From positions 52,406 through 116,405 of IMG/VR virus record IMGVR_UViG_3300044712_002679: a stretch of DNA of 64,000 nucleotides. One strand, given 5' to 3'. The first letter of the stretch is position 1. Every line of letters begins with the position of its first letter. The notes below the pieces were generated by a model, which saw only the letters and a program-made list of their open reading frames with translations, searched no databases and was not told the DNA's origin. This stretch comes from a virus. Shown here one piece after another: positions 47,797 through 64,000 of this stretch. The position numbers were made by a program, and so were the translations under genes.

Positions 47797-48057
47797 TTAT
47801 TTATTAAATAGCTTAATTAAAGCATCATATAATCCACTTTGTTCATTTGTAAAATTTCTTCGATATAGTTCGAGTTCAATTCCTCTAATAAAAACACAAT
47901 CAATAATTGTATCTAAAATTTCATCTTCTGATGGTTTAATTTTTGCATCATCATTAGCTTGCCAACCAAGAATAAACGTTTGTAGATCAGCACTAGTAAC
48001 CATTGGATACTTTTTTTTGAATGCAACTACTGCATCATTAAGTTTTTTATTTTCCAT
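47797..48057 (-). CDS. hypothetical protein
   Basis: 86-aa ORF. Confidence 0.4.
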   Translation of the reverse strand: MENKKLNDAVVAFKKKYPMVTSADLQTFILGWQANDDAKIKPSEDEILDTIIDCVFIRGIELELYRRNFTNEQSGLYDALIKLFNK

Positions 48058-48364
48058 TTTTTAAATCAATTTTAATTGCTAATTCTTTTGAACTTCCTAT
48101 TTTTTTATATAAATCATCAGGATGATATCCTGGTTTCCATTCAACACCCCCAGAAATATGAAATTTTTCGCATAATAAATGATGATCGGGACAAACAGTT
48201 ATACCATTTTCGATTATATATCCACCATTTGGCATTTCATTTCTATCTGTAATGTGATGTGCATCAAGATCATGTTTTATATCACAAAAAACACATTTGT
48301 GATGATCTCGTTCGAAAACTTTATTTCTAAAATTTTCCCTTATTTGTTTTTTACTTATTCCCAT
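48047..48364 (-). CDS. HNH endonuclease
   Basis: HHKCVFCD...DAHHITDRNEMPNGGYIIENGITVCPDHH: an HNH motif with paired Cys/His. Confidence 0.8.
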   Translation of the reverse strand: MGISKKQIRENFRNKVFERDHHKCVFCDIKHDLDAHHITDRNEMPNGGYIIENGITVCPDHHLLCEKFHISGGVEWKPGYHPDDLYKKIGSSKELAIKIDLKNGK

Positions 48365-48660
48365 TTATGAATATCATATTTTTCCATTATTACAAGAACT
48401 GAAACCCATCCATTATTTGCCAACGATATAGATGATGTTTTTACAATATATCCTTCTGATGTTTTTTTATCAATAAAATAATTAACTTGATTCATTTCAT
48501 TAGTCCGAATTGTTTTGCAATATGTTACAGTCGATAATGGTTTATCTGGCTGAATATGCATCAAATTTGATTCTCTAATTGGATTTGATTTTGTTGGTTC
48601 TGAATTTGCTACACAAATCGCTAACAAAATACTTACAAAAAATACTAATATTACTTTCAT
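48355..48660 (-). CDS. small secreted protein (start moved to MKVILVFF)
   Basis: The listed ORF's first 25 codons are antisense to the tRNA gene. The internal Met begins a typical signal peptide MKVILVFFVSILLAICVANSEP. Confidence 0.45.
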   Translation of the reverse strand: MKVILVFFVSILLAICVANSEPTKSNPIRESNLMHIQPDKPLSTVTYCKTIRTNEMNQVNYFIDKKTSEGYIVKTSSISLANNGWVSVLVIMEKYDIHKWE

Positions 48661-48678
48661 TTTTTTAATTAATGTTAG

Positions 48679-48749
48679 TATCCTAGTCGGGAATCGAACC
48701 CGAGATAAAGGTTTTAGAGACCTCCGCTTTACCACTTAGCTACTAGAAC
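48679..48749 (-). tRNA. tRNA with anticodon CUA (amber-suppressor type, tRNA-Sup)
   Basis: Hand-folded cloverleaf. Acceptor GTTCTAG/CTAGGAT (7 bp, two G-U). D arm GCTA-AGTGGTA-AAGC. Anticodon stem GAGGT/ACCTT with loop C-T-CTA-A-A (U33, A37). 4-nt variable loop. T arm TCGGG-TTCGATT-CCCGA. Discriminator A; no encoded CCA. Confidence 0.7.
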
Positions 48750-48861
48750 GAATAAAAAACAACCAATAATCTGACTTTCTTGAATTACTCACCAGATAGT
48801 ACCCCTTAGCTTTGTAGTATCAGTTGTTCATAATAGTGGATACAAATATACTTATTAATTA

Positions 48862-49281
48862 TTAATTTACCAAACTTTTATAGAAATTACCTTTTTCTTT
48901 TTTGTATTCCATTAAAAGTTTTTCAGATTCAGCTTGTGCTTTTAACCAAGCTTTTCTTGTATTTTGAATTGCTTCTTCTTTAGCTGAAACTTTAATACGT
49001 ATTCTACCAATACAAAAATTTTGGGTTAAAATACCAAAGAATGTATTAATTCTTCTTAATGTTGGTTTGTTACTAATCCAAAAACAATATTTTTGGATTT
49101 TTTTCATTTGATTCTTTGATATGTTTTTATCAAATTTATCAATATTCCGGATTTTACCCGACACTTGAAATTTGTTATTTTTAACTACGTTTTCAATTAT
49201 ATCAATTGTATTATTGATCACGTTCTTTAATTCACTCTTGTTGTATGTGTAATTTACACCATTTTCTACTATTGCTTCCAT
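48862..49281 (-). CDS. hypothetical protein
   Basis: 139-aa ORF. Confidence 0.4.
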   Translation of the reverse strand: MEAIVENGVNYTYNKSELKNVINNTIDIIENVVKNNKFQVSGKIRNIDKFDKNISKNQMKKIQKYCFWISNKPTLRRINTFFGILTQNFCIGRIRIKVSAKEEAIQNTRKAWLKAQAESEKLLMEYKKEKGNFYKSLVN

Positions 49282-49394
49282 AATTTTATTTATTTATTTT
49301 TTTTATTTATAATATTTGTTGTTTTATGATATTCCAATTATGGAAACTATTAAGGTGGTTTAATCTAGAACATAACTTCCTCCTTTCTTTTTTT

Positions 49395-49643
49395 TTATAA
49401 TTCAGTTTCAATTATTTTATAAAATTTATATTTTTCTAACCAACCCCAACCCAATTCTTCATGACCCCAATTTATCCAATAAGAATTTGAATAATTTGAA
49501 TTGTTTTGTAATTTATAAACCATATCTAAATGATGCATATATTTTTTCGCATCATCAAAATTATCAAAAATCTTATCATAATTATTGTTGTGTTCATAAT
49601 CATAAAATCGGATTTTTATTACATATTTTTCTTTACTAGACAT
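49395..49643 (-). CDS. hypothetical small protein
   Basis: 82 aa; overlaps the PTH2 stop. Confidence 0.4.
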   Translation of the reverse strand: MSSKEKYVIKIRFYDYEHNNNYDKIFDNFDDAKKYMHHLDMVYKLQNNSNYSNSYWINWGHEELGWGWLEKYKFYKIIETEL

Positions 49644-50025
49644 AGCAATTTTCCTTTCTTACATAAGAATTTTTATCAATTTTATCAATAGATTTATATT
49701 CCTTTAACATTAAAGGATATGATGATAATAATCGTCTAGATTGATCAGATGGTTCAATAGCAATAGCTGTTATTTGATCATCGAGATCAGGTTCTCTGAA
49801 GATAGAATACTTAATATTGTTTTTTTGTAATTTTTCGATGAGATTTTTGAGATCATCTTCATCTGCACACGATAATTGTGCTAAATATGGTTCTTTTATC
49901 CATAATTTTGCAATTTCTGGATGTTCAAAGACAAATTGAATAGCAGCATGGGATGCCATTACAGCTTGATATCCTGCGGTTGTATCACGTCTTGATACTG
50001 TTGATAATTTGTAAATCTAAGTCAT
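49636..50025 (-). CDS. pth2: peptidyl-tRNA hydrolase PTH2 family; in-frame TAG at codon 3 (50017-50019)
   Basis: ...RRDTTAGYQAVMASHAAIQ aligns with the PTH2 ...R.D.KMGKGKIAAQCSHAA core. W, an acidic DEDDL block, and TAIAIEP (PTH2 TVLGIGP) follow at the right spacing. The N-terminal strand IYKLSTVSRRD is only encoded upstream of the listed Met and downstream of ATG-ACT-TAG, which has a good SD (AAAGGA, 6-nt spacer). Confidence 0.6.
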
Positions 50026-50195
50026 AATATTTTTCCTTTTTACTTATATATAAAATTTTTTAATTTGTTTTTGTAAATGTATGTATATTTTTTAAATATA
50101 CAAATTATTATTCATATTATTTATATTTTTAACATAATAACATAATTTGACTTTTTATTTTATATATAAAAATTTTACTTTTTGTTTTATTTTTC

Positions 50196-50561
50196 TTATA
50201 ATATTTCACCCAAAACAGCACCATCCTTTTTCCGAATCAATAGTGGAACGTTGCTACCACTTAATTCAATATTAACATTTCCTTTTTTTATTTCGGATAT
50301 GATTTGATTGTTGGTATATCTTTGATTACCTGCTTCATCATTACTGATATGAATAGTCAAGATCATCTTTGGTTTATTTCTAAGGTCTTTACGATTAGGA
50401 TTGTACATATGCTTAGTGACATCATCTAGCCAACCATTTTCTTTTGCTTTACGATACGCTGTGGCATCACGAACACTAAATTCTGTTCGAGTTACATATT
50501 TTTTTGCGATTATTTCACAAGCATCTTTAGTCCAAGTAAATCCTGTTCTTCTTTCCTTCAT
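50196..50561 (-). CDS. hypothetical protein
   Basis: 121-aa ORF at the distal end of the 50-60 kb operon. Confidence 0.4.
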   Translation of the reverse strand: MKERRTGFTWTKDACEIIAKKYVTRTEFSVRDATAYRKAKENGWLDDVTKHMYNPNRKDLRNKPKMILTIHISNDEAGNQRYTNNQIISEIKKGNVNIELSGSNVPLLIRKKDGAVLGEIL

Positions 50562-50605
50562 AATATAATTTTTTATACAAATATATAATATTTTTTTATT
50601 AAATC

Positions 50606-51004
50606 TTACTGAACACTTAAAGTCAACTCAATATCTTCTGTTTCAAAATAAAGATTTTGTAATCTGTGGACATATTTCGGTTGGACTTTTATTTGTTTTC
50701 CGTTTATCCACCAACCATGATTTGTATTATAGACAAATTGTCCTTTAGTATAAACCCTAAATTCATTTTGATTTCCCTGAATAGTTTCACACGAAAAGCC
50801 AAATTTAGGGAGCCAATCTTCTGTCAACAATATTGGTTCTATACAATCTTCTGTTAGTGTACATTCACCTAGCGCATACCAATCAGATTCATTCCATTGG
50901 AAATTGTCATCAAAGTTTGAAATAACACCATCATTATTTCTATAAGACCAAATTGATACATTGTGATGTACCCAATTACCTATTTTTAATTGTTTTACAT
51001 TCAT
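50606..51004 (-). CDS. hypothetical protein (operon partner of the ATP-grasp gene)
   Basis: 132-aa ORF, 27 nt downstream of 51032..52177. Confidence 0.4.
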   Translation of the reverse strand: MNVKQLKIGNWVHHNVSIWSYRNNDGVISNFDDNFQWNESDWYALGECTLTEDCIEPILLTEDWLPKFGFSCETIQGNQNEFRVYTKGQFVYNTNHGWWINGKQIKVQPKYVHRLQNLYFETEDIELTLSVQ

Positions 51005-51031
51005 GTTTGATAAAATAAAACTTCTGATCCT

Positions 51032-52177
51032 TTAATTTATTTGTTTTAAATTTAAATCATTAACATCATTTGTAATAATATGTGGCATAAAATAAGACAT
51101 ATTATTAGTAATTTTACAATCTGTTTCACGAATACCAATTCCACAAGATTCCCCACCAATCACCCAAGAACCAATAATAGGATATTTTCCATCTTGTGGT
51201 TCAATTTCGACAAGTTCCTGGTAAATGAATCCTTCTTCACCATATTCACCACAAGTTTCACAATCCAACACACCATTTTTATATAATGATACATTGGCAC
51301 CTTCACGGGAATATATTGGTTTTTTACAATAATTACCCGATATCAGTGGATTTGTGTCCGCATTTAGAATATATGGTGAAGTAGGAAACAATTTTGATAA
51401 TACTACAAGCATATACTTATTACTCATAATAGCTTTCCACAACGGTTCAATGAAAGTCGTTTCACAATTTGGTATAGATTTACCAAATTCTTCATTAAAC
51501 ATCCATTCATATGGATATAATTTGAATAAAAAGTCAATATGTTGATCAGATTTATTATAAAACAAATCATCTTGACAATCAATATCTTCAATATCAAATA
51601 TTGATGTATTTAATCCCGCTTCAGCAGCAGTTGATAAAATATATGATGTTGTTGTATAATCTTCTAAATTATCACAAATACAACAAAAATCTACACGTTC
51701 ACTTTCATAATCTTTTTGAATATCAATCCAACTTTGTATCAATGCTTCGTGAAGACTATTAAATTGATCATTTTTGGGAAATAAATCTTCTTTCCATTCC
51801 CATTGAACTACACTTGCTTCAAATAATGATGTTGGTGTATCTGCATTAAATTCAAGTAATTTAATTTTACCATTTACAAAAGCAAAATCAAACCTACCAT
51901 ATAAACTTAATTCATCGTTTTCCCAACTATCAATCAATGTCGGAACAATATATCTTGGGATATGTAATTCATCCCAAAGATCGTTCTTTATGACATATTC
52001 AACAGCATCAATATACATTTGATAACATGCATTTGTTGCCGTTTCGATTTCAGTTATTTGTTTTTTAGAAAATTCATAATATGCATTTTCCAACCAATAA
52101 TTAGCATCAAAATAAAAACCTAAATCTTGAATTTTTTCTTTGTAATTAATTCTTGGTGCAATTGTAATTCTTTTCAT
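51032..52177 (-). CDS. glutathionylspermidine synthase-like (GspS/YgiC/YjfC family) ATP-grasp amidoligase
   Basis: Family hallmark RFDFAFVNGKIKLLEFNADTPTSLFEASVVQWEW (the E(Y/F)NADTP block) plus overall ~380-aa length. Confidence 0.7.
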   Translation of the reverse strand: MKRITIAPRINYKEKIQDLGFYFDANYWLENAYYEFSKKQITEIETATNACYQMYIDAVEYVIKNDLWDELHIPRYIVPTLIDSWENDELSLYGRFDFAFVNGKIKLLEFNADTPTSLFEASVVQWEWKEDLFPKNDQFNSLHEALIQSWIDIQKDYESERVDFCCICDNLEDYTTTSYILSTAAEAGLNTSIFDIEDIDCQDDLFYNKSDQHIDFLFKLYPYEWMFNEEFGKSIPNCETTFIEPLWKAIMSNKYMLVVLSKLFPTSPYILNADTNPLISGNYCKKPIYSREGANVSLYKNGVLDCETCGEYGEEGFIYQELVEIEPQDGKYPIIGSWVIGGESCGIGIRETDCKITNNMSYFMPHIITNDVNDLNLKQIN

Positions 52178-52204
52178 TTGTTGTTTTAATTTTTAAGATT
52201 AATA

Positions 52205-52585
52205 TTAAGAAGCAGACGATGATGAATGTCCACTAGTTCCAAAACCTTTTGATGATTTTGCACCTGTGCTAGATTTTGCACCATTTGCACCACTTCTAGT
52301 AAACTTAGATGTTCTAGGGATTGATGATGGGCGACTTACTACAGCACCACTAGGACTTCTATATTCACCACTCGATGGATAATAACACACTGTTGTGCGT
52401 TGACCATTCATCATTGAATAAATCATCCAATAACCCATAGCACTATTCCATGTGCTAGTATTACCACGATTATCAATGTAGGTTTGACCATCAGTTGGGG
52501 ATTCAGGATATTCGTTCTTTTTTTCACAAGATGACAATAAACTTAATGCTAATATTGCCAAAAAAATTGGATTTGATTTTTTCAT
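52205..52585 (-). CDS. lipoprotein (Ser/Gly-rich)
   Basis: MKKSNPIFLAILALSLLSSC lipobox followed by a low-complexity S/G/T-rich mature region. Confidence 0.55.
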   Translation of the reverse strand: MKKSNPIFLAILALSLLSSCEKKNEYPESPTDGQTYIDNRGNTSTWNSAMGYWMIYSMMNGQRTTVCYYPSSGEYRSPSGAVVSRPSSIPRTSKFTRSGANGAKSSTGAKSSKGFGTSGHSSSSAS

Positions 52586-52664
52586 AAATCTTAAACTTTT
52601 TAATTTTTAATTTATTTTTAAAGATTCAAATATATAAAACTTTTTAATATTTTCAAAATTATTT

Positions 52665-54347
52665 TTATTTTTTATTGATAAAATATACAGAATCATGATT
52701 AACCACAATTATACCACCATTGGTACAATGTATTACTGAATTTTCAAATATTTCAGTACTTTGATAACTTACCAATTCTTGCATATTAGAAGAATTAATT
52801 AATGTTAATTTATCATCTTCTGGCATAACCAAAATGTTATCATTTAAATAATCAAACATTCGTAATGATGTATAAGTTGAATCAAATATTTCAACTTGCA
52901 AATTTTTGATAAAAAACATTTTATAACAAACGCTTTCGTTTTCAATAACCTCAATTATACCAAATTGTCCACTTTGATGTAAATTCTTTATTTTATATTT
53001 TAAAAATGCTGAATTTAATCCATTTTTTTCATAAAATAAAACGGTATTACCTGATACATTTTGATATAAACTATATAAGCTATTAAATCTGCCACCAAAA
53101 ACTTCAGTTGTATCATATGATATTTTATCACCAAATTTATTGTTAAGATCAAATTTATACATAGTATCATTTGTGACAATAACTAAAATATTGTTGTATA
53201 AATCGGATTTTAAATTATTGGTATTAAATTTCATAATCACTTTATCATTCAATACATCAATCAAATTATTATCGACAATTGAATAAACATCGTTATTATA
53301 AACAAATAATTTGTTTTTAGTATTTATATTTTCTTTAATCAATATTAACTTAAATGTACCCTTTAATGAAACATCATAAACCAATAATTGATTTTTATCA
53401 TTCAACAAAACTAATCTATCTTTACTAGAATAACTATTAATAATATTTCCAGTATATTTGGCAATTAATGTGTGTATCACGAGTTCATTTGTTTTAATTA
53501 CTGTTGGTATAACTACTTTTTGTGTTTTTACTACAGGTTGTTGTACTTTACTATTCAAATCAATAATAAATCGTTCACCATTATTAAATATTCTTTCAAA
53601 TTGAATTAATATATTTGGATTTGAAATCGGTTCATAACATTTTGGTACAATAACATCAGAACTATTCAGTATAGATTTTTTATTGAACATTCTATCTGAA
53701 ATTTTAGGCATAGTTTTACAAACACCTTTAAATGGATGTGTGTATGTTAACCCATTAAACGCCAATACACCAAGTGCAAAATAATCACTTTTTATAGTAA
53801 CATTTCCACCATATAAATAATCTCTAATATCATCTAACAATATTCCGGAATGCTTAATTGATGGGGTTTCATAGGAATCAACATCCAAAAAATATATCAT
53901 ACCCCTATCATTTACTAAAATATTGTATGGATTGAGATCACCAATTACAATATTTTTGGAATGTGCAAATTTTACAGCATCAATAAGTCTTTCAATTATT
54001 AATTCTTTAATTTTATCTGTAATACCTTCACGAATACAAAAATTTTTATTGAAAACAGACAACAATGGATAAAAATTTGATGGAACTTTTCGCATAATAA
54101 ACCCAATGACCTTTTTTCTATCATCAAATAATAATTCATCAGGTTTAATAAAAATATTATTTTTTAATTCAGATAATTCATTAAATTTGGTTTCGGCAAT
54201 TGGTTTAATATTGGGTAAATATATTTTTGCAACCTTATCAGTCGAAATATCTATTATCTTACCTTCACCACCCCTAGCAATTTCATTACTTTCGTTGATA
54301 TTGTATAATAAATCACCTTTTTTGTTATATGCTTTCAACATAATCAA
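52665..54347 (-). CDS. Ser/Thr protein kinase-like domain protein with large C-terminal extension
   Basis: Gly-rich loop ARGGEGKI, VAKIY lysine, catalytic-loop analogue HSKNIVIGDLNPYNILV, and DFG analogue FLDVDSYE within the first ~200 aa; 560 aa total. Confidence 0.6.
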   Translation of the reverse strand: MIMLKAYNKKGDLLYNINESNEIARGGEGKIIDISTDKVAKIYLPNIKPIAETKFNELSELKNNIFIKPDELLFDDRKKVIGFIMRKVPSNFYPLLSVFNKNFCIREGITDKIKELIIERLIDAVKFAHSKNIVIGDLNPYNILVNDRGMIYFLDVDSYETPSIKHSGILLDDIRDYLYGGNVTIKSDYFALGVLAFNGLTYTHPFKGVCKTMPKISDRMFNKKSILNSSDVIVPKCYEPISNPNILIQFERIFNNGERFIIDLNSKVQQPVVKTQKVVIPTVIKTNELVIHTLIAKYTGNIINSYSSKDRLVLLNDKNQLLVYDVSLKGTFKLILIKENINTKNKLFVYNNDVYSIVDNNLIDVLNDKVIMKFNTNNLKSDLYNNILVIVTNDTMYKFDLNNKFGDKISYDTTEVFGGRFNSLYSLYQNVSGNTVLFYEKNGLNSAFLKYKIKNLHQSGQFGIIEVIENESVCYKMFFIKNLQVEIFDSTYTSLRMFDYLNDNILVMPEDDKLTLINSSNMQELVSYQSTEIFENSVIHCTNGGIIVVNHDSVYFINKK

Positions 54348-54931
54348 TTAATTTTTACTAAGTTATAAATTTCAGTAAGTCTATTTTGATATTCCATTTC
54401 AATATCTTCACCTTTAAATGGGTGATTTCTGAACCCAGAACTTGTAATAGCTTCACCTGGTTCTGGACTAAGTATATGATTTATTTCATGTGATTCATAG
54501 GTTATCATATCAAGGGGTTCATCATAAAAATGTGAATTTATTGATAATTCAGCACATTTAAAACTATAACCATCTAAAGATATAATTTTCAAAATACTCA
54601 ATAATTTACCATCTCTTGTAATACGTTTAATGAAATATTTGGATATTATTGGATTAAATTCATCACATAATTGTTCATAAGAAATTTCATTCAAAACATC
54701 TAGTGGTTTTATATCAGATAAAATTACAATTGATAATTCACCTAATCTATAATCCCTCGTTGATAAAGAATTCAATTTACTAACTAATTTTTTATTATAT
54801 GGAAATATACACATCCATATTTGTTGATTTTCGTTTAGTTCATAAATCTTACAAAACTTTAAATCACTTGGAACATTTAAAATAAATTCTTCTGTTCCTG
54901 AATAATGGCGACGTTGAATTTTATATTTCAT
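54344..54931 (-). CDS. hypothetical protein with HExxH motif (possible zinc metallopeptidase)
   Basis: SHEINHIL near the C-terminus; no other recognisable features. Confidence 0.3.
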   Translation of the reverse strand: MKYKIQRRHYSGTEEFILNVPSDLKFCKIYELNENQQIWMCIFPYNKKLVSKLNSLSTRDYRLGELSIVILSDIKPLDVLNEISYEQLCDEFNPIISKYFIKRITRDGKLLSILKIISLDGYSFKCAELSINSHFYDEPLDMITYESHEINHILSPEPGEAITSSGFRNHPFKGEDIEMEYQNRLTEIYNLVKIN

Positions 54932-54934
54932 AAT

Positions 54935-55315
54935 TTATTTATAAAAGCTATCAACAATATTTTTAAATTCTATTGGAATTTCAATATCAACAATATTACA
55001 ATCATCCAATACATTAACATCACAAGTTCTACCTATACATAAATCATCTCCACCAAATAAATGTTTCCAAAATCCCATCAAACCAATAGATGACCCTCCA
55101 TCACTATGTTTAGTAAGCATTATTGGTGCAAAACTACCACCTTCTCTTGGTGCTTTCTTAATTAAATTAACCGCATCTTGAGTTATATCAACTTCTTTTG
55201 TGTCAATAACACAACCTAGTTGACCCGAACTTTTTGGATTATTGATAAATGTTCCATTATCTAAATCAGTTTCAGCACCTATAACCCCCTTGTAAGCAAA
55301 AATTTTTGTTTTCAT
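54935..55315 (-). CDS. hypothetical protein
   Basis: 126-aa ORF in the operon. Confidence 0.4.
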   Translation of the reverse strand: MKTKIFAYKGVIGAETDLDNGTFINNPKSSGQLGCVIDTKEVDITQDAVNLIKKAPREGGSFAPIMLTKHSDGGSSIGLMGFWKHLFGGDDLCIGRTCDVNVLDDCNIVDIEIPIEFKNIVDSFYK

Positions 55316-55349
55316 ATCGTTTTTGATTTAGTTCAAAAATATATTTTTA

Positions 55350-55793
55350 TTAACCAATATCATTTATTTTTCTTTTAAATACACAATGAGTATTATTTAA
55401 ACTTATAAAGTCATATCCAAAAACATAATAATCATTTATCATTTTTTCAAGATTAATTTGATCATCAATTAATACTACCTTATAAATATCAAAATTTAAA
55501 TTTAAATCATTTATTACGTGCATCATTGTAGTTTCGCACACAAATTCTTTATCTCCACAACCAATATGAACAAAATCTTTTAATTCAGATGATAAATAAT
55601 ACCCATTAATTTTAACTGGATTAACACCACCACCACCATCTAAATTATTAATAATTATATATTTCCATTCATTATAAATATAAATTTGTAAATAATAACG
55701 TTCTTCATCATTATCAAATGTTATTATTCTTACTCGAAATTTATCATTCAAATATCCATAAATATTAGATTTAATTTTTTTCATATTTTTCAT
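55350..55793 (-). CDS. hypothetical protein
   Basis: 147-aa ORF in the operon. Confidence 0.4.
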   Translation of the reverse strand: MKNMKKIKSNIYGYLNDKFRVRIITFDNDEERYYLQIYIYNEWKYIIINNLDGGGGVNPVKINGYYLSSELKDFVHIGCGDKEFVCETTMMHVINDLNLNFDIYKVVLIDDQINLEKMINDYYVFGYDFISLNNTHCVFKRKINDIG

Positions 55794-55801
55794 ATTGATT
55801 T

Positions 55802-56524
55802 TTAATAAATAAATCTAACAACTGATAAATCATCAAAATTTGAATATCCATTTTTTGGTTGTGTCAAAATATTATATTTTCTAGCCAACATAACTTCACT
55901 ATCAATTAATTTTTTATCATATAATAAATCTTCTATAACATTTGAATATGTTTTAGATGAATCGGAATTTCTGAATGAATAAATACCATCTGAACAAATA
56001 GATAATCCATTTTGTATATTATCAAATTTGAATTTTTTAATGTTTTTTTCATACACATCAAAAACTTTTTCATTTAAATGGTATGCTAAATAATCTGGTG
56101 CATTTTCAAATGATTCTAGTTTTATTTCTTTATCATCAACCACAATACAACCATCACCAGAAACTATGATATAAGCTTGATTTTCTTTAAAAAAGACAAT
56201 AATAAAAGTTGATAATATTTCTAAGTCTTTTAAACTTAATGTGTGTTTGATTTTCTTTAATTTATTAAAAAACTTAACAAATGTTTGTTTAGCAATATCT
56301 TCTAATGAATGATCCCCATCATCAAACATTTGATATGTTTTTGTATTTAAAACCCTATTTAAGATTTTAGAATATAAATTAGATGCAAAATGACTTTTTG
56401 TTCCAGTTGAACAACCATCAAAAACTGCACCAACATAATATGGTTCGGCAATAGAAAAAAACAGATCATCCTCGCAATTAACGGGATGATCTGTTCCTTT
56501 TTTTAATACTGTCCTAATTAACAT
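55802..56524 (-). CDS. PP2C-family Ser/Thr phosphatase
   Basis: VGAVFDGCSTG (PP2C motif hhGhFDGHGG with a Cys variant), then SGDGCIV and SDG acidic motifs at the expected spacing; 240 aa. Confidence 0.65.
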   Translation of the reverse strand: MLIRTVLKKGTDHPVNCEDDLFFSIAEPYYVGAVFDGCSTGTKSHFASNLYSKILNRVLNTKTYQMFDDGDHSLEDIAKQTFVKFFNKLKKIKHTLSLKDLEILSTFIIVFFKENQAYIIVSGDGCIVVDDKEIKLESFENAPDYLAYHLNEKVFDVYEKNIKKFKFDNIQNGLSICSDGIYSFRNSDSSKTYSNVIEDLLYDKKLIDSEVMLARKYNILTQPKNGYSNFDDLSVVRFIY

Positions 56525-56526
56525 AG

Positions 56527-57210
56527 TTAGAATGTTACAACGGGATTATTTCCACTTGCACTCTTTGATATCGAGCTAGAAATAAACGAAATCATCTTTT
56601 TTATTTCTTTTCCAGTATCACCAACTTTTGCTAAGTGTTCAATACCCATTTCAAGTTGTGCATTTTCAAAATGTGCCTGAGTTCCAACACCAAATAATAT
56701 GGTAGTAAAACTAAAAGCATTTGCTTCATTATCTTTAATTGTTTCTAATGAAGATTTAACTTTTTGGGCAGCATTATTTGCACTTGAATTGTCTTCACCA
56801 TCGGTAATAACAAATACTAATGTTTTAACATTAATGCCCGAACTTTCGAGATTTTCCCTATATTCTACTGCATTTTTAATACCAGACATAACAGCATCAT
56901 ATAATGCTGTACCACGACCTTGTGGAACAAATGTTGTTACAGGTACACCAATAATAGGCTGAAATCCACTACGTACCCTTACATCTTCATCAAACTCAAC
57001 AATAGAAACAAATAATCTGTCGTGTACGTGTGATGCTTGCATTGTTTGAACAAAATCGTTGAATGCATTGTTTAAATCATCAATATAACGACCAACACTT
57101 GGTGATACATCCACTACAAAAACACAGTTTATTGTTTCTTCCACCTGGATTTTATCAGGATCAAAATTATTAAAAGTCAACCCCAAATCAAAATTATCAA
57201 ATTCACTCAT
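56527..57210 (-). CDS. von Willebrand factor A (vWA) domain protein, TerY-like
   Basis: MIDAS DxSxS as FVVDVSPSV, then LYDAV(T) and LVFVITDGEDN motifs; 227 aa. Confidence 0.75.
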   Translation of the reverse strand: MSEFDNFDLGLTFNNFDPDKIQVEETINCVFVVDVSPSVGRYIDDLNNAFNDFVQTMQASHVHDRLFVSIVEFDEDVRVRSGFQPIIGVPVTTFVPQGRGTALYDAVMSGIKNAVEYRENLESSGINVKTLVFVITDGEDNSSANNAAQKVKSSLETIKDNEANAFSFTTILFGVGTQAHFENAQLEMGIEHLAKVGDTGKEIKKMISFISSSISKSASGNNPVVTF

Positions 57211-57215
57211 ATTTA

Positions 57216-58004
57216 TTATAGATTAATGTTAGTTGATGTTTCAAATCTGATACCGAGTTTTTTTGCATCATCATAGATTTTATCTGCGATGTGTTCAAAT
57301 CCTGTCACATTAGACATACAATCGGTCAAAATGATGAATTTTTTTGCCAATTCTGGTGTGTATTCCATTGCTTGTTTTAGTGTGTTAGCAACACAGTGAG
57401 ACATTGCTTCACCCGCAAAATAAATTTCATCAAATTGTTCCAATTTTTTAAGCAATCCTTGATTTAATTGTGTTTCAGGTTTACCTTCAACTGGCACGTT
57501 TGCACGAAAAGCCCCAAAATGTTCAGTCATAGGATAAGTACCCTTAGTAACAACTTGATAAAAATTCTTATTTGCACGACACCATTGTTTAATAGGCAAC
57601 ATAATGGAATCTACAAAACTTGCACCCATTGTTCCAATAATACAATGTTCAGGCCAAATACAATGTGGAAATTCACCTTGTTTTTCAAGTTCTTCAACAT
57701 ATTTGATCGCTTCGTTTGGTGCAAATCTTGGACTCCAAGTTCCAGATAGCACATCAGATACAGATATAATAGTGAATGGGTTTGGATAATTTCCATCCTT
57801 ATCCATCCAAAAACTTGGATGACTAATATCATTCACCTGATGTGAATCCATTGTCAATCCGATAAAATCAATTTGTTTCTCATTCTTGCGAATAAACTCA
57901 CCCACACGTACCATATCTGCATCTGCACCTTGTACAAACAGTGATCCTTGTGGATTACAAAAATCAAATTGACCATCAATAATTAATAATGCAATTTTCT
58001 TCAT
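57216..58004 (-). CDS. isochorismatase-family cysteine hydrolase (nicotinamidase/PncA-like)
   Basis: ALLIIDGQFDFC (catalytic Asp region) and FAGEAMSHCVANT (GxxxxxCV nucleophile motif); 262 aa. Confidence 0.7.
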   Translation of the reverse strand: MKKIALLIIDGQFDFCNPQGSLFVQGADADMVRVGEFIRKNEKQIDFIGLTMDSHQVNDISHPSFWMDKDGNYPNPFTIISVSDVLSGTWSPRFAPNEAIKYVEELEKQGEFPHCIWPEHCIIGTMGASFVDSIMLPIKQWCRANKNFYQVVTKGTYPMTEHFGAFRANVPVEGKPETQLNQGLLKKLEQFDEIYFAGEAMSHCVANTLKQAMEYTPELAKKFIILTDCMSNVTGFEHIADKIYDDAKKLGIRFETSTNINL

Positions 58005-58049
58005 TTTGTTATTTTTTTGTTATTAATTTATGAATAAAAGCCTGTTTCA

Positions 58050-59798
58050 TTATTGAAACAAGCTAATTAAAGTGTCTTTCGACATATCAGTTAAATCTAT
58101 TTTAGCTTCATTTTTTGCAATGGTAAACCCTGCATCAATAAGAACATCTTTCAAGTTCAGATAACAATCTAAGATTGATATCGCATATGTTGTATACAAA
58201 TCTGTTATAGAATTATATGATACACGACCATTTCCGGTTCTAAATTGTGCCAATATGAACTTTTCACCTGTAAGAACCCCTAAAGATTTTTCTTTTGAAT
58301 CCATTTCCATATCGACAGTAAACAACACATTATTTGGATCAACCATATAATTTTTATGTATATTTCCAATTTTTTCAGATGCTAAAAACATCTTAAATTT
58401 TGAATTTGGTGATCCACCAAACATATTAACTTTAACAATTGATGGTGTAAATCCTTTACCTGCATAATATAATTCTGTTGCATCAGGTTCAGCATATGTC
58501 ATATCACCAGAATATATAATAGAATTTCTTTCGTTAGTATAACTTGCATTCCAACCATATTTTTTACCATCAATTGTCATTAATGATAAGTCAAGATCGT
58601 TAGCACCATCAACATTTTTCCAATTAATACCAACAATACAGTCCGTTTCACTAAAATCGAAAGATGTTCCAATTGGATAATTACCAACAAATGATTTTTC
58701 TGATGTTGGTATTGTGATATTAACACCCTTTGGAATATTAATTACACACGCTTTTTCTTTCAAAGAATCAATTAAACTTTGATAAATAATCGCATAAACT
58801 TTGCTTAAATAAGCCATGTTTATTGTATTTGTATTCTCTTTCATATACAACTTTCCATTTCGGATACCAAAACTTTTCATTTCAGTTTCTTTTAATCGAA
58901 TATTGATAGTTTGAAGCAACAATACTTTCTTAAAATTGGTAACTTTAGAAAGTTTTTCGTGTAATTTTGTTAAATCCTGTTCAAAACCTAACAACCTTTC
59001 AAAATAACCCAATTCTAATGGTTTATGATTAGTATTAGCCAACTTTCTTAATTTGTTTACACATTTATTGTTCACTTTATTTCCTTTAAAAGCCAAAAAT
59101 ATTGGTTTGAATCTGAAAAATACTTCAGATAATTTTTCATATCCAAATTTTTCAACAATCTTACTAATATCAATTTTACTATTTTTTATAGTAAAAATTG
59201 TAACTCTATCTTTGATTAATAAAGTTTTACCTGTTACATTATATACCAAAAATCTAACCATTTCAACCGGATCAGATGGTAATATACCAAGTTTTTTACA
59301 AAGAAACATTTTAGCTTCTTTATTTTTAACTTTTTCAATATCAATGGTATATTTGAATTCATCAAGTAATGTCAAAACATCTTCAATGGTTTCTTGTTTT
59401 AAGGCAATACCACTAAATAACATCTTTTCGCATCTTTCGATACATTCTTCTTGTGTTATTGGTAAAATAACCTTATATGTTGAATACTGAATCAATTCAG
59501 GTTCGTCATTAGGTATATATGGTGTACCTTCGAAATTTGTACCATATGTTGACATATAATGAAGACATTGATCAACAAACAATTCAAATCTTGTTTTGTC
59601 CGTGATATCTTTAAATGTTTTATAAAAAGTTGAATTATAATTAACTTGTTTAGTTTTCAAAAACTCAACAACCGTTTTATTAACACAACTAGGATGAATA
59701 ATATATCCAACCTTTAATGCCAATTCAATAACTTGTGCATATGTTGCACCATCGCTGTTTCTAACTAAACTTCTGTTGAATAATTTTAACTCTGTCAT
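58050..59798 (-). CDS. large protein with C-terminal TerD-like domain (tentative)
   Basis: The C-terminal 200 aa contain VDGANDLDLSLMTIDGKKYGW and IIYSGDMTYAEPDATELYY. These resemble the TerD acidic Ca-binding motifs (GDN.TGEGDGDDE) only loosely. Confidence 0.35.
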   Translation of the reverse strand: MTELKLFNRSLVRNSDGATYAQVIELALKVGYIIHPSCVNKTVVEFLKTKQVNYNSTFYKTFKDITDKTRFELFVDQCLHYMSTYGTNFEGTPYIPNDEPELIQYSTYKVILPITQEECIERCEKMLFSGIALKQETIEDVLTLLDEFKYTIDIEKVKNKEAKMFLCKKLGILPSDPVEMVRFLVYNVTGKTLLIKDRVTIFTIKNSKIDISKIVEKFGYEKLSEVFFRFKPIFLAFKGNKVNNKCVNKLRKLANTNHKPLELGYFERLLGFEQDLTKLHEKLSKVTNFKKVLLLQTINIRLKETEMKSFGIRNGKLYMKENTNTINMAYLSKVYAIIYQSLIDSLKEKACVINIPKGVNITIPTSEKSFVGNYPIGTSFDFSETDCIVGINWKNVDGANDLDLSLMTIDGKKYGWNASYTNERNSIIYSGDMTYAEPDATELYYAGKGFTPSIVKVNMFGGSPNSKFKMFLASEKIGNIHKNYMVDPNNVLFTVDMEMDSKEKSLGVLTGEKFILAQFRTGNGRVSYNSITDLYTTYAISILDCYLNLKDVLIDAGFTIAKNEAKIDLTDMSKDTLISLFQ

Positions 59799-59828
59799 AA
59801 TGTGTTTTTTGTTGTTAATTAATAAAAA

Positions 59829-60155
59829 TAAAGGCGAATAGTAACTTTTTTCATAAATTGAGTTTGTAATAGGAACTATTTATGCCTTTTTGAAAAAAGC
59901 GGATTGTAAATCACATATAAGGTTTTTATAGGAACAATCTATGCTTAATTTTCGTGACAAATATAATACTTATTTTTTAATCACCAAATTTATTGTAAAA
60001 ATTTTTTAATTTTTGTAGGAATAAAAAAGATAAAAGCGAATAGTATTTTTCCGTTGCATTGATTTGTAATAGGAACTATTTATGCCTTTATCTTAAAAAT
60101 AGCGAGTTGTATTGGTTATCTTGTAAAAGGTAAAATAGGAACAACTTATGCTATT
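59829..60155. repeat. duplicated ~115-bp intergenic unit carrying four ATAGGAAC(N5)TATGCY iteron-like sites
   Basis: Units at 59829-59945 and 60041-60155. Iteron sites at 59868-59885, 59927-59944, 60069-60086 and 60135-60152. Each unit has inverted-repeat arms aaaggcgaatagt/actatttatgccttt. Confidence 0.7.
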
Positions 60156-60223
60156 ATGTATATATAAAAATTTTTTATCAAAAAGTTTATTTTATATTGA
60201 ATAATATTTTTATATATAATTTT

Positions 60224-60742
60224 TTATTGTAATTTATCGGATAATAATCTTTTTGCTTGATCCGTGTATTGATTTTTAAATGATGCAACATATGTTAAAT
60301 CACTTAAATCTGAATCATTTATTTTAATTGATACTAATCCACGATAAAAAAATGCAGAAGGATTTTTATTGTCTTCGTATATTGCAAGATTTAATTGATA
60401 ATATGATTCAAGATAATTTCCCAATTCATATTCACATCTACCCCTCATTACACGACCGTTATACATTGATGATGCGCTAGTAAAATATATTAATGCATTT
60501 TTAAAATCCCCCGAATTAAAATATATCATACCTGCTAAGTATGCTGGTTCTGAATTCCATGCATTACAATCAAATTTTCTTGATTTTATACAATCATTTA
60601 TTGCATCATTGTAATTTTTATTGCTGTTTTTGATAATTGCTTGATTATAATAATATCGTGCAGAATCCACATTGGTTTGACAATATGTATTAAAATTGAA
60701 AACAACAATAAAAATGGATAATATTATATTTTTTGTTTTCAT
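60224..60742 (-). CDS. secreted TPR-like repeat protein
   Basis: Signal peptide MKTKNIILSIFIVVFNFNTYCQ, then TPR-like helices (YLAGMIYFNSGDFKNALIYF). Confidence 0.5.
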   Translation of the reverse strand: MKTKNIILSIFIVVFNFNTYCQTNVDSARYYYNQAIIKNSNKNYNDAINDCIKSRKFDCNAWNSEPAYLAGMIYFNSGDFKNALIYFTSASSMYNGRVMRGRCEYELGNYLESYYQLNLAIYEDNKNPSAFFYRGLVSIKINDSDLSDLTYVASFKNQYTDQAKRLLSDKLQ

Positions 60743-61089
60743 TGTATAAATATTAATTACAATACAAAGATAGCAAAAAATATAATATTATCCAAATAAA
60801 AAATCAATTATTCTGTAGCCAGGATTCTGTCATTTAAATCTCACATTTATCTAAAGTCTTTCGACTTTCCTTTCCAAAGAAAGGCGCACCAACCCGTTCT
60901 CATAAAATCGCTCACCTTCTCGAACTGTTTGGCTTGCTATCTCAGTAGTAAAAACGACTTATTAAGTCTCCTACTTTGAGCGAAATAGTCCTGAACTTCC
61001 TCTAATTTTTCAACCAGCGTAAGATCAAATAATCAATTTCATACAAAGATACAAAAAATATTTTAATATCAAAAATTTATATATAAAAT

Positions 61090-61593
61090 ATGAATACAAA
61101 ATTTATAGATTTTATTAATGAAGAATTGTCTGATGATGTAAAAGTATTAAGATTAAATTCAAAAGAAACACACAGTCTATTATTTTATGATGATAATAAA
61201 TTTAAAGATAAAACTTTACCAATTAGATTACAGTTTGTAGCACATAATAATTTTAAAGATTATATTAATAATTATTACATTATTTTAATGTTAAATGAAC
61301 TAATTATTGGAATATCAAAGATTTCTAATATTTCAAAAAATACAACAATAATAGATTTTATTAATATTGATGAAAAATATAGGCGTAATAAATTAACTAG
61401 ATTAATATTAGATACTATATTTAAAGATGCAAAAAAATATAACAAGCAAATAAGTATTACACCATATACAAAATTGGGTAAAAATCGGGTTCAACATATT
61501 TTAAAAGAATTTGCTAATAAATATAAAGTCAATTTTATAGATAGAAAATACACAGATTCAATTTATACAGATGAATATATGTCTGATATTTAA
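61090..61593 (+). CDS. hypothetical protein (weak GNAT-like motif)
   Basis: YRRNKLTRLIL resembles the GNAT motif A region; 167 aa. Confidence 0.35.
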   Translation: MNTKFIDFINEELSDDVKVLRLNSKETHSLLFYDDNKFKDKTLPIRLQFVAHNNFKDYINNYYIILMLNELIIGISKISNISKNTTIIDFINIDEKYRRNKLTRLILDTIFKDAKKYNKQISITPYTKLGKNRVQHILKEFANKYKVNFIDRKYTDSIYTDEYMSDI

Positions 61594-61871
61594 TTTTTAG
61601 ATGGTTCTATAAAATCAACTACATTACTATAAATCCCTAGATTAAAATAACCACCAGTTTCAATTTCATTTTTTAATGAATCTAAATATGTTTTAGGTTT
61701 TTCTTTAGATTTTATATAATGTTTCGAATCAAACTTATAATATGATAAAAATTCGACTAAACATTCATAAATCCCGATTTCAAATTCACCTACACCATCA
61801 GCATCCATTTTATCTAGTTTACGATCAACTATTTTTTGAAATGCTCGATATTCCAACTTTAGTTCTGTCAT
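61590..61871 (-). CDS. hypothetical protein
   Basis: 93-aa ORF. Confidence 0.4.
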   Translation of the reverse strand: MTELKLEYRAFQKIVDRKLDKMDADGVGEFEIGIYECLVEFLSYYKFDSKHYIKSKEKPKTYLDSLKNEIETGGYFNLGIYSNVVDFIEPSKN

Positions 61872-61874
61872 AAA

Positions 61875-62399
61875 TCAAATAGTAATATATTTCACAGGCA
61901 CATTATCAGTTAACCAAACATTATTTTCACTTAAATAAAATTTTATTCCATCAGCATACATTGCAGCAGAATCAATTTTCAATATGATTGGGGAATTACG
62001 TTTTGAATAACGCTTTCCAACTGAATATGCAACATCTTCTTTGTCTGTTAAATGGACATGAAGTCGATTCATTTTAGATAGTCCCGTTTTTTGAATAATC
62101 TTATAACTTTCAGGTGATGTTCCATGATAAAGTATTTTTGGTGGTCTAGCTGATTTAAGTTCAACATCAACCTTAATTGAATGACCTTGTGATGCCCTTA
62201 TCTTTGTTTTATCTTCATTATAAGCCAATCTTTTCTTGTCATTAGTATCAACAATGTGATCTAATTCTTTTTGTGTTATTTTAACTTTACTTAAAAGTGA
62301 ATTAACATCAACATATCCGTGTTTATCCATCATTAAATCTTCTGGATTGTGTCGCAATAAATACGATATGTGCTTCCCGATTTGTATATAATCTTTCAT
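61875..62399 (-). CDS. kptA: RNA 2'-phosphotransferase Tpt1/KptA
   Basis: ISYLLRHNPE...GYVDV..LL...RASQGHS...ILYHGT...GL...LHVHL is collinear with the Tpt1/KptA family over 174 aa. Confidence 0.85.
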   Translation of the reverse strand: MKDYIQIGKHISYLLRHNPEDLMMDKHGYVDVNSLLSKVKITQKELDHIVDTNDKKRLAYNEDKTKIRASQGHSIKVDVELKSARPPKILYHGTSPESYKIIQKTGLSKMNRLHVHLTDKEDVAYSVGKRYSKRNSPIILKIDSAAMYADGIKFYLSENNVWLTDNVPVKYITI

Positions 62400-62478: not shown

Positions 62479-63165
62479 TTAATTACACCAATCAAATCTT
62501 AATTCACCATTTGGAAATAGTGTTTGTTTTGTTTCATCGTATATTGGTTCAGGTAAATTGAATATTGGCACTAAATCCATATCACGTTTATCACTATTGT
62601 CTCGTATTACCCAATACGATATATTATTCAATCCTATTTTATTTAAGCTATTTTTTATTTTTTCTAAATCATTAACAGTAGATATCCCACCTTTAAATAG
62701 TGGTATATTTATTCTAATAACAAGATTTGTAATATTTTCAATATCTTTAAGTTTAGCCATTGTTGGTGGTAAAAATTTTGTTTTTAATGTTTTTTTTGAT
62801 TTATTTGGATCAATATTGTGTACGGTAACATATAAATGTGTAAGACCCATTTTTTTCCACTTTTTTAAATAATCTATAGAAGATTCTAACAAAATTCCAT
62901 TAGTATATAATTTTATCTTTTTAATGTTAAAATCACGAAGGGTATATAATGTTCTACTTATTTCATCTAAATGAAGTAATGGTTCACCACCACCAGAAAT
63001 AGATAATTCTTCTAATGTATCTATATTATCCTTTACGATTGTTTTTAATAATTCGAAATCAAATATCTTAGCTGTTCTATGTTGTCTTCCTGCACAAAAT
63101 GAACAATTTGCATTGCACCGTTCATTAGCAACCAAAACACCCAATTTTCTTATCCCAATTGACAT
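62479..63165 (-). CDS. radical SAM enzyme (QueE/NrdG/PFL-activase-like small class)
   Basis: CNANCSFCAG (CX3CX2C) at residues 17-24 and SGGGEPLL glycine-rich SAM motif; 228 aa. Confidence 0.7.
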   Translation of the reverse strand: MSIGIRKLGVLVANERCNANCSFCAGRQHRTAKIFDFELLKTIVKDNIDTLEELSISGGGEPLLHLDEISRTLYTLRDFNIKKIKLYTNGILLESSIDYLKKWKKMGLTHLYVTVHNIDPNKSKKTLKTKFLPPTMAKLKDIENITNLVIRINIPLFKGGISTVNDLEKIKNSLNKIGLNNISYWVIRDNSDKRDMDLVPIFNLPEPIYDETKQTLFPNGELRFDWCN

Positions 63166-64000
63166 ATAGCACCATATTTAATCCACGAATAATAAACACC
63201 ACCATCTTGTAAAACTACAAGCTGTCTAACAAAATCTTTTTTTGGATTATGTTTTGTGACATAATCCGTCAATCTAACTATTTTTCCGTAGAGGTCATAT
63301 ACACCACCACCCCATTCGTGTGAATGACAAAGTTTACCATTTTTTGCTAACCATCGCCAAATTCTATATACATTCCAACGTGATGGTGTATATTCGTTCC
63401 TTGTACCATCAGGATTTCCAACGGTCCAAGATGTTATATTATTATAACCATCACCAAATAAATGCAATAATGCTGCATTAAATTCATTTGGTTTATCAAT
63501 TCCACCCTTTCTAAGTAATATTGTTGATCTAACACCAATACCGTGTTTTTTAATATTTTGTGATATTGATTCAAATGATGGATATTTTTTGACACCATAT
63601 ACCTTTGCTTGTTCGGATACTGAATAATGATGAACCGAAACTACGATATTCGTTAATCCTAATTCTTTCCAAATTGGTAAATATTTATCACAAAAATTTG
63701 AATCACCAAATAAAATACCATTTGTAAACATATTAACATTTGGGAAATATGCACCTTGTTTAACACATTTTTGATAAACATTAAGTGCTTCTGTAATAGC
63801 ATCTGGATCACATGTTGGTTCACCTGCGGATGTCAATGATAAGCTCCATCCACCATATTTGGCTGATAATTTTATTGCAAACTCGAGATTTCTCATATTT
63901 GTTTGATGTAAAATTTCATTTTGTTGACCCCTACCTAATGTTTTTCCTGAACAAAATGAACAATTAGCATTACACGAACCATTTCCAATTACCGCAGATA
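63150..64000 (-). CDS. radical SAM enzyme, paralog of the previous, N-terminus beyond window end
   Basis: The frame stays open above the listed Met to nt 64000 and encodes ...GSCNANCSFCSGKTLG... (the same CX3CX2C), followed by SAGEPT. Confidence 0.6.
   Translation of the reverse strand, partial: SAVIGNGSCNANCSFCSGKTLGRGQQNEILHQTNMRNLEFAIKLSAKYGGWSLSLTSAGEPTCDPDAITEALNVYQKCVKQGAYFPNVNMFTNGILFGDSNFCDKYLPIWKELGLTNIVVSVHHYSVSEQAKVYGVKKYPSFESISQNIKKHGIGVRSTILLRKGGIDKPNEFNAALLHLFGDGYNNITSWTVGNPDGTRNEYTPSRWNVYRIWRWLAKNGKLCHSHEWGGGVYDLYGKIVRLTDYVTKHNPKKDFVRQLVVLQDGGVYYSWIKYGAICQLG

Follow-up and report, generated by a model that had tools for sequence, protein, structure and literature searches.

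The subject of this report is a group of eleven genes between positions 50,606 and 59,798 of a 64,000-nucleotide stretch of viral DNA (positions 52,406 to 116,405 of IMG/VR record IMGVR_UViG_3300044712_002679; this whole stretch is hereafter called the window, and its numbering is used below), and in particular the four among them that encode a PncA-like nicotinamidase, a stand-alone von Willebrand factor A (vWA) protein, a PP2C-type phosphatase and a Ser/Thr kinase, which we call the cassette (Table 1). The initial annotation of this DNA described eleven co-oriented minus-strand genes, and all of them are indeed present as open reading frames (ORFs), separated by gaps of -4 to 79 nt. It also placed two small ORFs between the phosphatase and kinase genes; small ORFs do lie there, but there are three of them (147, 126 and 195 aa). 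The DNA of the window has a G+C content of approximately 24%. As for its source, an identical copy of the 582-aa protein is encoded on a 501-kb JGI contig, and the 462-595-kb 'uncultured phage' genomes LR756500, LR756511 and LR745208 hold relatives of several window genes. A megablast comparison of the region with 50,697 phage records gave a sole match, of 5%, to LR756500, and no capsid or tail genes were recognised in the window. We consider origin from a huge phage to be well supported by this context, the window alone being no proof.

Table 1. Genes and other features of the window, the eleven co-oriented genes being listed first in their direction of transcription
Feature	Position	Strand	Remarks
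582-aa protein, N-terminal helical domain (~370 aa) and C-terminal TerD-fold beta-sandwich	58050..59798	-	
PncA-like nicotinamidase (cysteine hydrolase)	57216..58004	-	family-specific ~50-aa insertion; first cassette gene
Stand-alone vWA protein	56527..57210	-	intact metal-ion-dependent adhesion site (MIDAS): D34-x-S36-x-S38, T101, D137
PP2C-type Ser/Thr phosphatase	55802..56524	-	
147-aa ORF inside cassette	55350..55793	-	no family matches
126-aa ORF inside cassette	54935..55315	-	real small phage gene
195-aa ORF inside cassette	54344..54931	-	the 'HExxH protein' of the initial annotation
Ser/Thr kinase (1-265) with C-terminal beta-propeller (283-560)	52665..54347	-	last cassette gene; propeller from model
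Lipoprotein, 126 aa, weakly DUF1190-like (YgiB/YjfM type)	52205..52585	-	lipobox LLSSC; partner of the ligase
Stand-alone GSP-synthase-family ATP-grasp ligase (YgiC/YjfC type), 381 aa	51032..52177	-	
132-aa ORF	50606..51004	-	no family matches; in no related locus
Terminator-like hairpin	58039..58064	-	11-bp stem, then T-rich tail; at stop codon of 582-aa gene
Four tandem ~50-nt hairpins	60152-60101, 60086-60035, 59945-59898, 59886-59833	-	425-nt leader of the TerD-like gene
Tpt1/KptA NAD-dependent RNA 2'-phosphotransferase	61875..62399	-	PTS_2-RNA 4e-46; outside the eleven genes
RlaP-family nucleotidyltransferase	32219-33271	-	
PTH2-like protein	49636-49959	-	

Among the profile matches that the initial annotation had predicted, those to VWA, PP2C and GSP_synth were obtained, while the one to Isochorismatase stayed below its cut-off and no Pfam TerD match was found. 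The designation of the first cassette protein as nicotinamidase-like nevertheless holds, as does its grouping with the three genes that follow: it matches the PDB entry 2h0r at 3.7e-10 and the NCBIfam PncA profile at 6.9e-11, and its Asp-Lys-Cys triad (D10, K154, C204) and metal ligands (D53, H55, H62, H120) are kept in 42-44 of the 44 members of its family. These residues align with what we take to be the corresponding positions D8, K96, C138, D49, H51, H57 and H71 of the Mycobacterium tuberculosis enzyme. The protein is 56-61% identical to its homologues in phages (survey loci L006 and L007) and Bacteroidota, and 36-43% identical to those of Acidobacteriota and Armatimonadota, and we predict from sequence that the whole family, at approximately 262 aa, is a divergent nicotinamidase subfamily. 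In phage and bacterial homologues alike, the vWA gene always comes next. The vWA protein itself scores above the Pfam VWA cut-off (34.1 bits, 4e-8), this generic profile being the only one matched, and its MIDAS residues are kept in 44 of 45 family members; the phosphatase is likewise above the cut-off of PP2C_2 (42 bits, 1e-10), with metal motifs (four Asp-Gly/Asp-Asp) kept in 51-53 of 53 members. In the kinase, the glycine loop, K41, D137, N142 and D155 are kept in nearly all members. All three proteins, vWA, PP2C and kinase, are predicted to be active.

Is the neighbourhood of these genes coincidental? The same order of vWA, PP2C and kinase genes recurs in dozens of loci, approximately 40 of them bacterial, in line with the initial annotation and against a chance adjacency. 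A scan of IMG/VR with the single kinase sequence returned nothing, while an alignment-based scan of genomes succeeded, finding full-length kinase homologues (approximately 555-570 aa) in many contigs. LR756500, a second phage contig and a Bacteroidetes metagenome-assembled genome all show the order PncA-like, vWA, PP2C, kinase, and a colinear cassette is present in at least six other phage contigs (LR756500, LR745208, LR756511, L007, L095 and a faecal fragment), with the qualification that in LR756511 the PncA, vWA and PP2C genes were found and the kinase gene was not within the fetched stretch. LR756511 (L091), LR745208 (L092) and the faecal fragment have inserts of differing length between cassette genes, measuring 2.4-3.5 kb in the first two, so the cassette evidently tolerates interruption, as it does in the window.

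The three small ORFs of the window are lineage-specific insertions, because a close relative, with a kinase 64% identical, has its vWA, PP2C and kinase genes without inserts. The 147-aa ORF is found in no homologous cassette, that of the close relative included; a resemblance of this ORF to NMNAT amounted to 19.8 bits against a cut-off of 198 and was dismissed as noise. A copy of the 126-aa ORF, 76% identical, was found on a 363-kb phage contig of IMG/VR, where the surrounding genes are unrelated. The 195-aa ORF had been presented as an HExxH protein. Its motif, HEINH, is missing even in an 81%-identical homologue, and among 12 representative homologues it is replaced by NEIKY, YEIPD and others, which leaves a chance occurrence and no metalloprotease.

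In bacteria, one genome per species was scanned, which gave 80 loci, and iterative profile searches were run on the ORFs of these loci. The PncA-like and vWA genes are present together in 43 of them and the full quartet in approximately 35, with PP2C lacking in 4-5 loci. The bacteria that carry the cassette are Bacteroidota, Acidobacteriota (Pyrinomonadaceae, Blastocatellia) and Armatimonadota, and their loci are chromosomal. PncA-vWA is the tightest pair, since it is found without kinase or PP2C on Variovorax megaplasmids and since, in a Thermoflexibacter assembly, one contig carries the pair and another the kinase.

What surrounds the bacterial cassette is, in our view, the most telling part of the comparison. 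Namely, clustering of the flanking ORFs gave a NUDIX plus winged-helix regulator of the NrtR type immediately upstream and on the same strand in 23-24 bacterial loci, nicotinate phosphoribosyltransferase (PncB) in flanking position in 8, NAD (nicotinamide adenine dinucleotide) synthase (NadE) downstream in 3, and KptA/Tpt1, flanking either the cassette or its PP2C-kinase part, in 9. The complete string NrtR-PncB-PncA-vWA-PP2C-kinase-NadE occurs in one 6.7-Mb genome. The Variovorax PncA-vWA pair faces an NrtR gene, amid NUDIX, macro-domain and NAD-kinase genes; in Variovorax sp. WDL1 plasmid 2 (L098, 652780-663355), a nucleoside deoxyribosyltransferase-like gene also stands beside it. As NrtR, PncB, NadE and KptA are the genes around the bacterial cassette, the triad is tied to NAD salvage and not to tellurite genes. 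In phages, a NAD synthase gene lies 4 kb from the cassette of LR756500, and the Tpt1 gene of the window, 4 kb upstream of pncA, encodes a protein 50% identical to the KptA that adjoins bacterial cassettes. Eleven bacterial loci also have, downstream, a protein of approximately 740 aa with an N-terminal methyltransferase domain, which follows the kinase directly (L050, L064, L065, L070, L075, L077, L080, L084-L086 and L096). This protein may belong to the bacterial operon as well; the phage is without its gene.

Taken together, we think it moderately probable, and prefer it to other explanations, that several independent modules make up the region as a mosaic, the core of which is a nicotinamidase/vWA/PP2C/kinase cassette copied from bacterial NAD-salvage operons under NrtR control, with the general layout NrtR-(KptA/PncB)-PncA-vWA-PP2C-kinase-(NadE/PncB). 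How might such a cassette work? All enzymes that cleave NAD release nicotinamide, which the nicotinamidase would turn into nicotinate, the substrate of the Preiss-Handler route, while the vWA protein, as its obligate partner, would bind the hydrolase or be the target of phosphorylation. By adding and removing phosphate, the kinase and PP2C would together switch the vWA/PncA pair, with the propeller as a sensor or docking domain that would sense a protein or a ligand, and the switch as a whole would gate both the clearance of nicotinamide and the recycling of NAD. An infecting phage would thereby hold the turnover of NAD under its own control, and the cleavage of NAD could possibly come from NAD-depleting defences of the host or from NAD-consuming enzymes that the phage itself encodes, such as Tpt1. 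What the hydrolase acts on, what the kinase phosphorylates and what the phage gains are our inferences.

Several observations weigh against this picture. To our knowledge, no experiment ties any TerY-P-like triad, i.e. the vWA, PP2C and kinase combination discussed below, to NAD metabolism. The hydrolase scores under the curated cut-offs of its families (18.5 vs 27 bits for Pfam Isochorismatase, 42 vs 174 for NCBIfam PncA), and because of these scores and the 50-aa insertion its substrate may not be free nicotinamide. What is more, PncB, NadD, NadE and NrtR are all missing from the 64-kb window; with no NAD-building enzyme there, the phage nicotinamidase would need enzymes of the host or genes elsewhere on the contig. 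The kinase can also be found outside the quartet: a closely related phage (kinase 68% identical) keeps it alone, and approximately 20 Bacteroidota loci have it alone or with PP2C only. Finally, the phage origin follows from context, that is, the 501-kb contig, the homologues in huge phages and the PHROG matches, and not from structural genes in the window.

The initial annotation likened the vWA, PP2C and kinase genes to the TerY-P triad, which was reportedly described by Anantharaman, Iyer and Aravind in 2012 and of which Gao et al. are said to have found a stand-alone defence version in 2020. The likeness stands as far as composition and order are concerned: in both cases a small MIDAS vWA protein, a PP2C and a Ser/Thr kinase are encoded consecutively, which fits a reversible phospho-switch. 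It does not extend to the C-terminus of the kinase, to an association with ter (tellurite-resistance) genes or to the genomic context, which is one of NAD salvage instead. In particular, a zinc ribbon (TerY-C) forms the C-terminus of the TerY-P kinases that have been described, and an OB fold that of the defence version (PMC11090510), whereas the C-terminus of the window kinase is modelled as a beta-propeller of approximately 280 aa and has no TerY_C match in Pfam. Moreover, a nicotinamidase-like gene is always ahead of the vWA gene, and the neighbours met in the loci examined were NrtR, PncB, NadE, KptA, the methyltransferase and ATP synthase, not ter genes, DNA-processing or restriction systems, CoCoNuTs or defence islands. 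A tblastn search with the vWA protein against 72,556 plasmids (E <= 0.01) hit 13 records, among which no TerY annotation and no enterobacterial host was found. The cassette, then, probably works as a TerY-P-like phospho-switch that is coupled to NAD salvage and to a nicotinamidase, and is a variant of TerY-P rather than a member of it by definition.

Could it still be an anti-phage defence of the TerY-P type, carried by the phage as cargo (e.g., for superinfection exclusion), with the nicotinamidase as accessory or effector? Phages are known to carry defence genes, stand-alone TerY-P-like modules protect against phages (PMC11090510), the three genes have the make-up and order of TerY-P, and PADLOC models for the kinases of defence systems give weak matches to the window kinase. 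The matches of the kinase are generic, however (PD-T4-6, mad6, MkoA), and in the same library, whose TerY-P content is unchecked, the vWA protein has no match and PP2C only a weak one, to the candidate model PDC-M21C (E = 0.0021). The propeller, being neither an OB fold nor a zinc ribbon, also speaks against a defence system of this type, as do the bacterial homologues, which sit in NAD-salvage operons and stable housekeeping contexts and in no defence islands. In Bacteroidales, for example, the cassette is fixed on the chromosome beside the ATP-synthase operon, a position unlike a defence island. All in all, we regard defence cargo as quite unlikely, and retain a cassette derived from NAD-salvage operons as the better account.

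The initial annotation went further and took all eleven genes for a single Ter-related signalling operon. On such a reading, a metabolite would be made or sensed by the triad and the hydrolase acting together with the TerD-like protein and the ATP-grasp ligase. The genes are co-oriented and tightly packed, a TerD fold is confirmed (see below), and in other phages R2K ATP-grasp and phosphoribosyltransferase genes lie near the TerD-like gene, all of which agrees with such an operon. It is contradicted by the lack of co-occurrence: while the expected conservation of the neighbourhood applies to the four-gene cassette, the other seven genes (the TerD-like gene, the three small ORFs, the lipoprotein and ligase pair and the 132-aa ORF) are missing from every homologous cassette locus examined, and the adjacencies between modules are conserved in no related locus. 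Even one transcript of eleven genes is doubtful, because the terminator-like hairpin between the TerD-like gene and pncA sets the former apart from the rest; a promoter scan was uninformative in DNA of 24% GC (102 sites vs 95 expected). Since the ligase and lipoprotein pair, too, stands on its own in phages, we find the common operon very improbable indeed, and the modules are best considered separately, as parts of a mosaic.

The ligase and lipoprotein are the simpler case. The assignment of the ligase to the GSP-synthase (glutathionylspermidine synthase) family is secure (E = 4e-128, 428 bits, profile positions 2-371 of 371; it also matches phrog_6215), and the lipobox upholds that of the lipoprotein, which matches phrog_3739 at 4e-6. 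The CHAP amidase domain of the bifunctional Gss is absent from the ligase, its best match to NF007801 covering only positions 485-618 of 619. Homologues of the ligase are present in 145 phage records, and in the phage Motura a 127-aa DUF1190 lipoprotein is encoded ahead of the ligase, in the same position as in the window. As in the YgiB-YgiC and YjfM-YjfC pairs of Escherichia coli, a small lipoprotein gene is immediately upstream of a ligase of approximately 380 aa that lacks the amidase domain, and the same arrangement is that of the 'gsp' genes of phages such as Achromobacter phage Motura; unlike in the E. coli pairs, the lipoprotein of the window matches DUF1190 only weakly (E = 0.047). 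The two genes are an ordinary and common YgiB/YgiC-like phage accessory pair, unrelated to the cassette, and their absence from the homologous cassettes lends no support to the link to a Ter-type operon that had been drawn for the ligase.

The 582-aa protein was said to have a C-terminus resembling TerD. By structure, this part indeed has the TerD beta-sandwich fold, but no TerD sequence profile is matched: Pfam gives no TerD at E <= 0.1, and when the PDB was searched with a profile built from 35 homologues, no TerD chain was retrieved. Compared with the TerD family (2qz7, 2kxt), the protein is also distinguished by its fusion to a conserved helical domain of approximately 370 aa, and its gene by being phage-specific and linked to tRNA clusters and an array of RNA hairpins rather than to ter operons. 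The family comprises more than 940 clusters, with full-length structural relatives in Campylobacter and Lactobacillus phages, and the neighbours of the gene elsewhere are unrelated and differ from locus to locus. In the cultured cyanophages S-CRM01 (g174; locus L138, 130601-136418) and S-CBWM1 (gp22; L139, 13705-19531), it lies in the middle of a tRNA gene cluster. In other words, this is an independent and widespread phage gene outside the cassette. A 568-aa protein of L007 was considered as a distant homologue and rejected (hhalign probability 0.1%).

The leader of this gene contains the four tandem hairpins, with the consensus RRC-WWA-NNNNGU-UCCUWU-[variable loop]-ACNNNN-C-GYY. Their 17-nt core occurs 4 times in the leader and nowhere else in the window, with 0.09 matches expected by chance, and the same motif is found upstream of a TerD-like homologue in an unrelated contig. 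Across 38 IMG/VR loci, the motif has an outer helix of 3 bp and an inner one of 6 bp that is closed by GU/AC; between the two, a WWA bulge faces a single C. UCCU(A/U)U is conserved, whereas the A-rich loop varies and in some instances contains an extra hairpin. In a first alignment, 99% of the cells were paired and 7 of 9 pairs showed compensatory double changes; none of 500 shuffles was as good, and no shift of register came near. The outer helix, which was outside the selection rule, covaries all the same (GC, AU, GU, UA, CG), and the presence of G-U but no A-C pairs is consistent with an RNA that has the same orientation as the gene. A covariance model gave 82 + 8 matches, all on the gene strand and all beside TerD-like homologues. 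The 82 matches, in 377 kb, lie at most approximately 600 nt upstream or directly downstream of the homologue, in 1-6 copies, and their alignment has 8 of 9 pairs covarying; some 120 kb of other huge-phage sequence gave no matches, and a further 1.16 Mb of other loci gave them only in the three loci that carry the TerD-like gene. The motif goes with this gene family in approximately 30 divergent phages, including the cyanophages, whose TerD-fold proteins are just 28-30% identical; besides the window, it was noted at loci L001, L003, L100-L137, L138 and L139. In S-CRM01, the antisense ORF g173c (49 aa), which overlaps the array, is probably spurious.

A search of Rfam 15 gave no match at E <= 1 in window positions 48000-62000 or in the hairpins of six motif-rich loci. 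When the copies in the window are folded to minimum free energy, each has the same P1/P2 helices, weak at -4.5 to -6.8 kcal/mol, and stabilisation by a protein or a ligand is plausible. A third helix, in which UCC would pair with GGA, is feasible in only 22 of 64 copies and was discarded. In two loci, approximately 1 kb after the TerD-like gene is free of ORFs and full of hairpins and tRNA-like elements. Matches to the YrlA model (L104, 3259-3330 and 3421-3496; L128, 3621-3703) are interleaved with the hairpins beside tRNA genes; they reach 31-41 bits against a gathering score of 69 and may be tRNA-like elements. The arrangement resembles, and no more than resembles, that of Ro60/Rsr with its Y RNA (YrlA) genes, in that a protein gene is flanked by arrays of structured or tRNA-like RNA. 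Unlike in Ro60/Rsr, no TROVE fold was detected, a Ro/TROVE-like N-terminal domain having been considered and set aside, the hairpin is no Y RNA, and the YrlA matches are far below the gathering score. We suggest that the hairpin is an uncatalogued structured RNA, possibly a cis-regulator, an operator for autoregulation or an RNA that partners the TerD-fold protein, and that the two possibly form an RNA-protein or riboregulatory system of phage tRNA regions. As a clean candidate for a structured RNA, carried with its gene by the cultured S-CRM01 and S-CBWM1, the array suggests that a protein family of hundreds of large phages has a role connected with RNA.

Elsewhere in the window, the Tpt1/KptA, RlaP-family and PTH2-like genes look like an RNA-repair and translation-rescue set that is dispersed through it. 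Just upstream of Tpt1 are two adjacent genes for a radical-SAM-like pair (62479-63165 and 63150-63896, both on the minus strand), and an SbcC-like protein is also encoded. A 676-aa protein (9179-11209, minus strand) has an N-terminal TPM-phosphatase domain (E = 9e-28), which is unusual for a phage. A tRNA with a CUA anticodon, i.e., an amber suppressor, lies at 48678-48749 on the minus strand (64.5 bits with the Rfam tRNA model; labelled tRNA-Pyl by ARAGORN), and a mechanical ORF of 126 aa overlaps it; the eleven genes need no read-through of TAG.

Returning to the cassette, the nrtR-pncA-pncB operons of nicotinamide salvage (Rodionov et al. 2008, PMC2330246) are among its closest known counterparts. 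As in these, the gene for NrtR directly precedes that for a PncA-type hydrolase, and in several genomes the operon also includes PncB and NadE; unlike in these, the hydrolase is a divergent protein of approximately 262 aa with a 50-aa insertion, and the triad is inserted between pncA and nadE/pncB. The paper on these operons does not mention vWA-PP2C-kinase genes (PMC2330246), and we found no papers that mention the triad embedded in nrtR-pncA-pncB operons. The nrtX-nrtY genes of the same 2008 paper might be the PncA-vWA pair of Variovorax. As vWA-PP2C-kinase triads are widespread and mechanistically unexplained, the variant described here offers a concrete hypothesis for them, namely the control of nicotinamide clearance in NrtR operons.

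The second comparison is with the phage systems NARP1, NARP2 and NARP3, which employ Adps/Namat, Nampt/Nmnat or PnuC/NadR and which are likewise phage-encoded NAD-metabolism genes acting on the products of NAD cleavage. As phage NAD reconstitution of this kind is an established counter-defence, one can ask whether the cassette is primarily such a system, in that removal of nicotinamide relieves product inhibition of NAD-using phage enzymes or starves the nicotinamide-dependent salvage of the host, or in that the kinase switch senses an attack while the cassette feeds NAD reconstitution against NAD-depleting immunity. The conservation of the cassette in four huge-phage genomes and further metagenomic phage contigs, the nearby NAD synthase of LR756500 and the NAD-consuming Tpt1 of the window would all suit such a role. 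That said, PncA is used by none of NARP1-3, the window is without PncB or NadE, and the bacterial cassette is chromosomal and apparently housekeeping; moreover, counter-defence overlaps with the explanation we prefer and differs from it only in the selective benefit. We judge it rather improbable in either form. Somewhat less doubtful, and offered tentatively, is the wider proposal that the nicotinamidase-vWA pair under a propeller-kinase/PP2C switch is a new bacterial module of NAD homeostasis, captured by huge phages and with a direct role in the conflict over NAD during infection. Depletion and rebuilding of NAD form a central front between bacteria and phages, to which a switch-controlled phage nicotinamidase would add a regulated arm of the Preiss-Handler type. 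None of NARP1-3 has a nicotinamidase or a kinase/phosphatase switch, while here no downstream NAD-building enzyme is encoded in the window; compared with these three, the phage-captured cassette is possibly a fourth, regulated route against NAD-depleting immunity.

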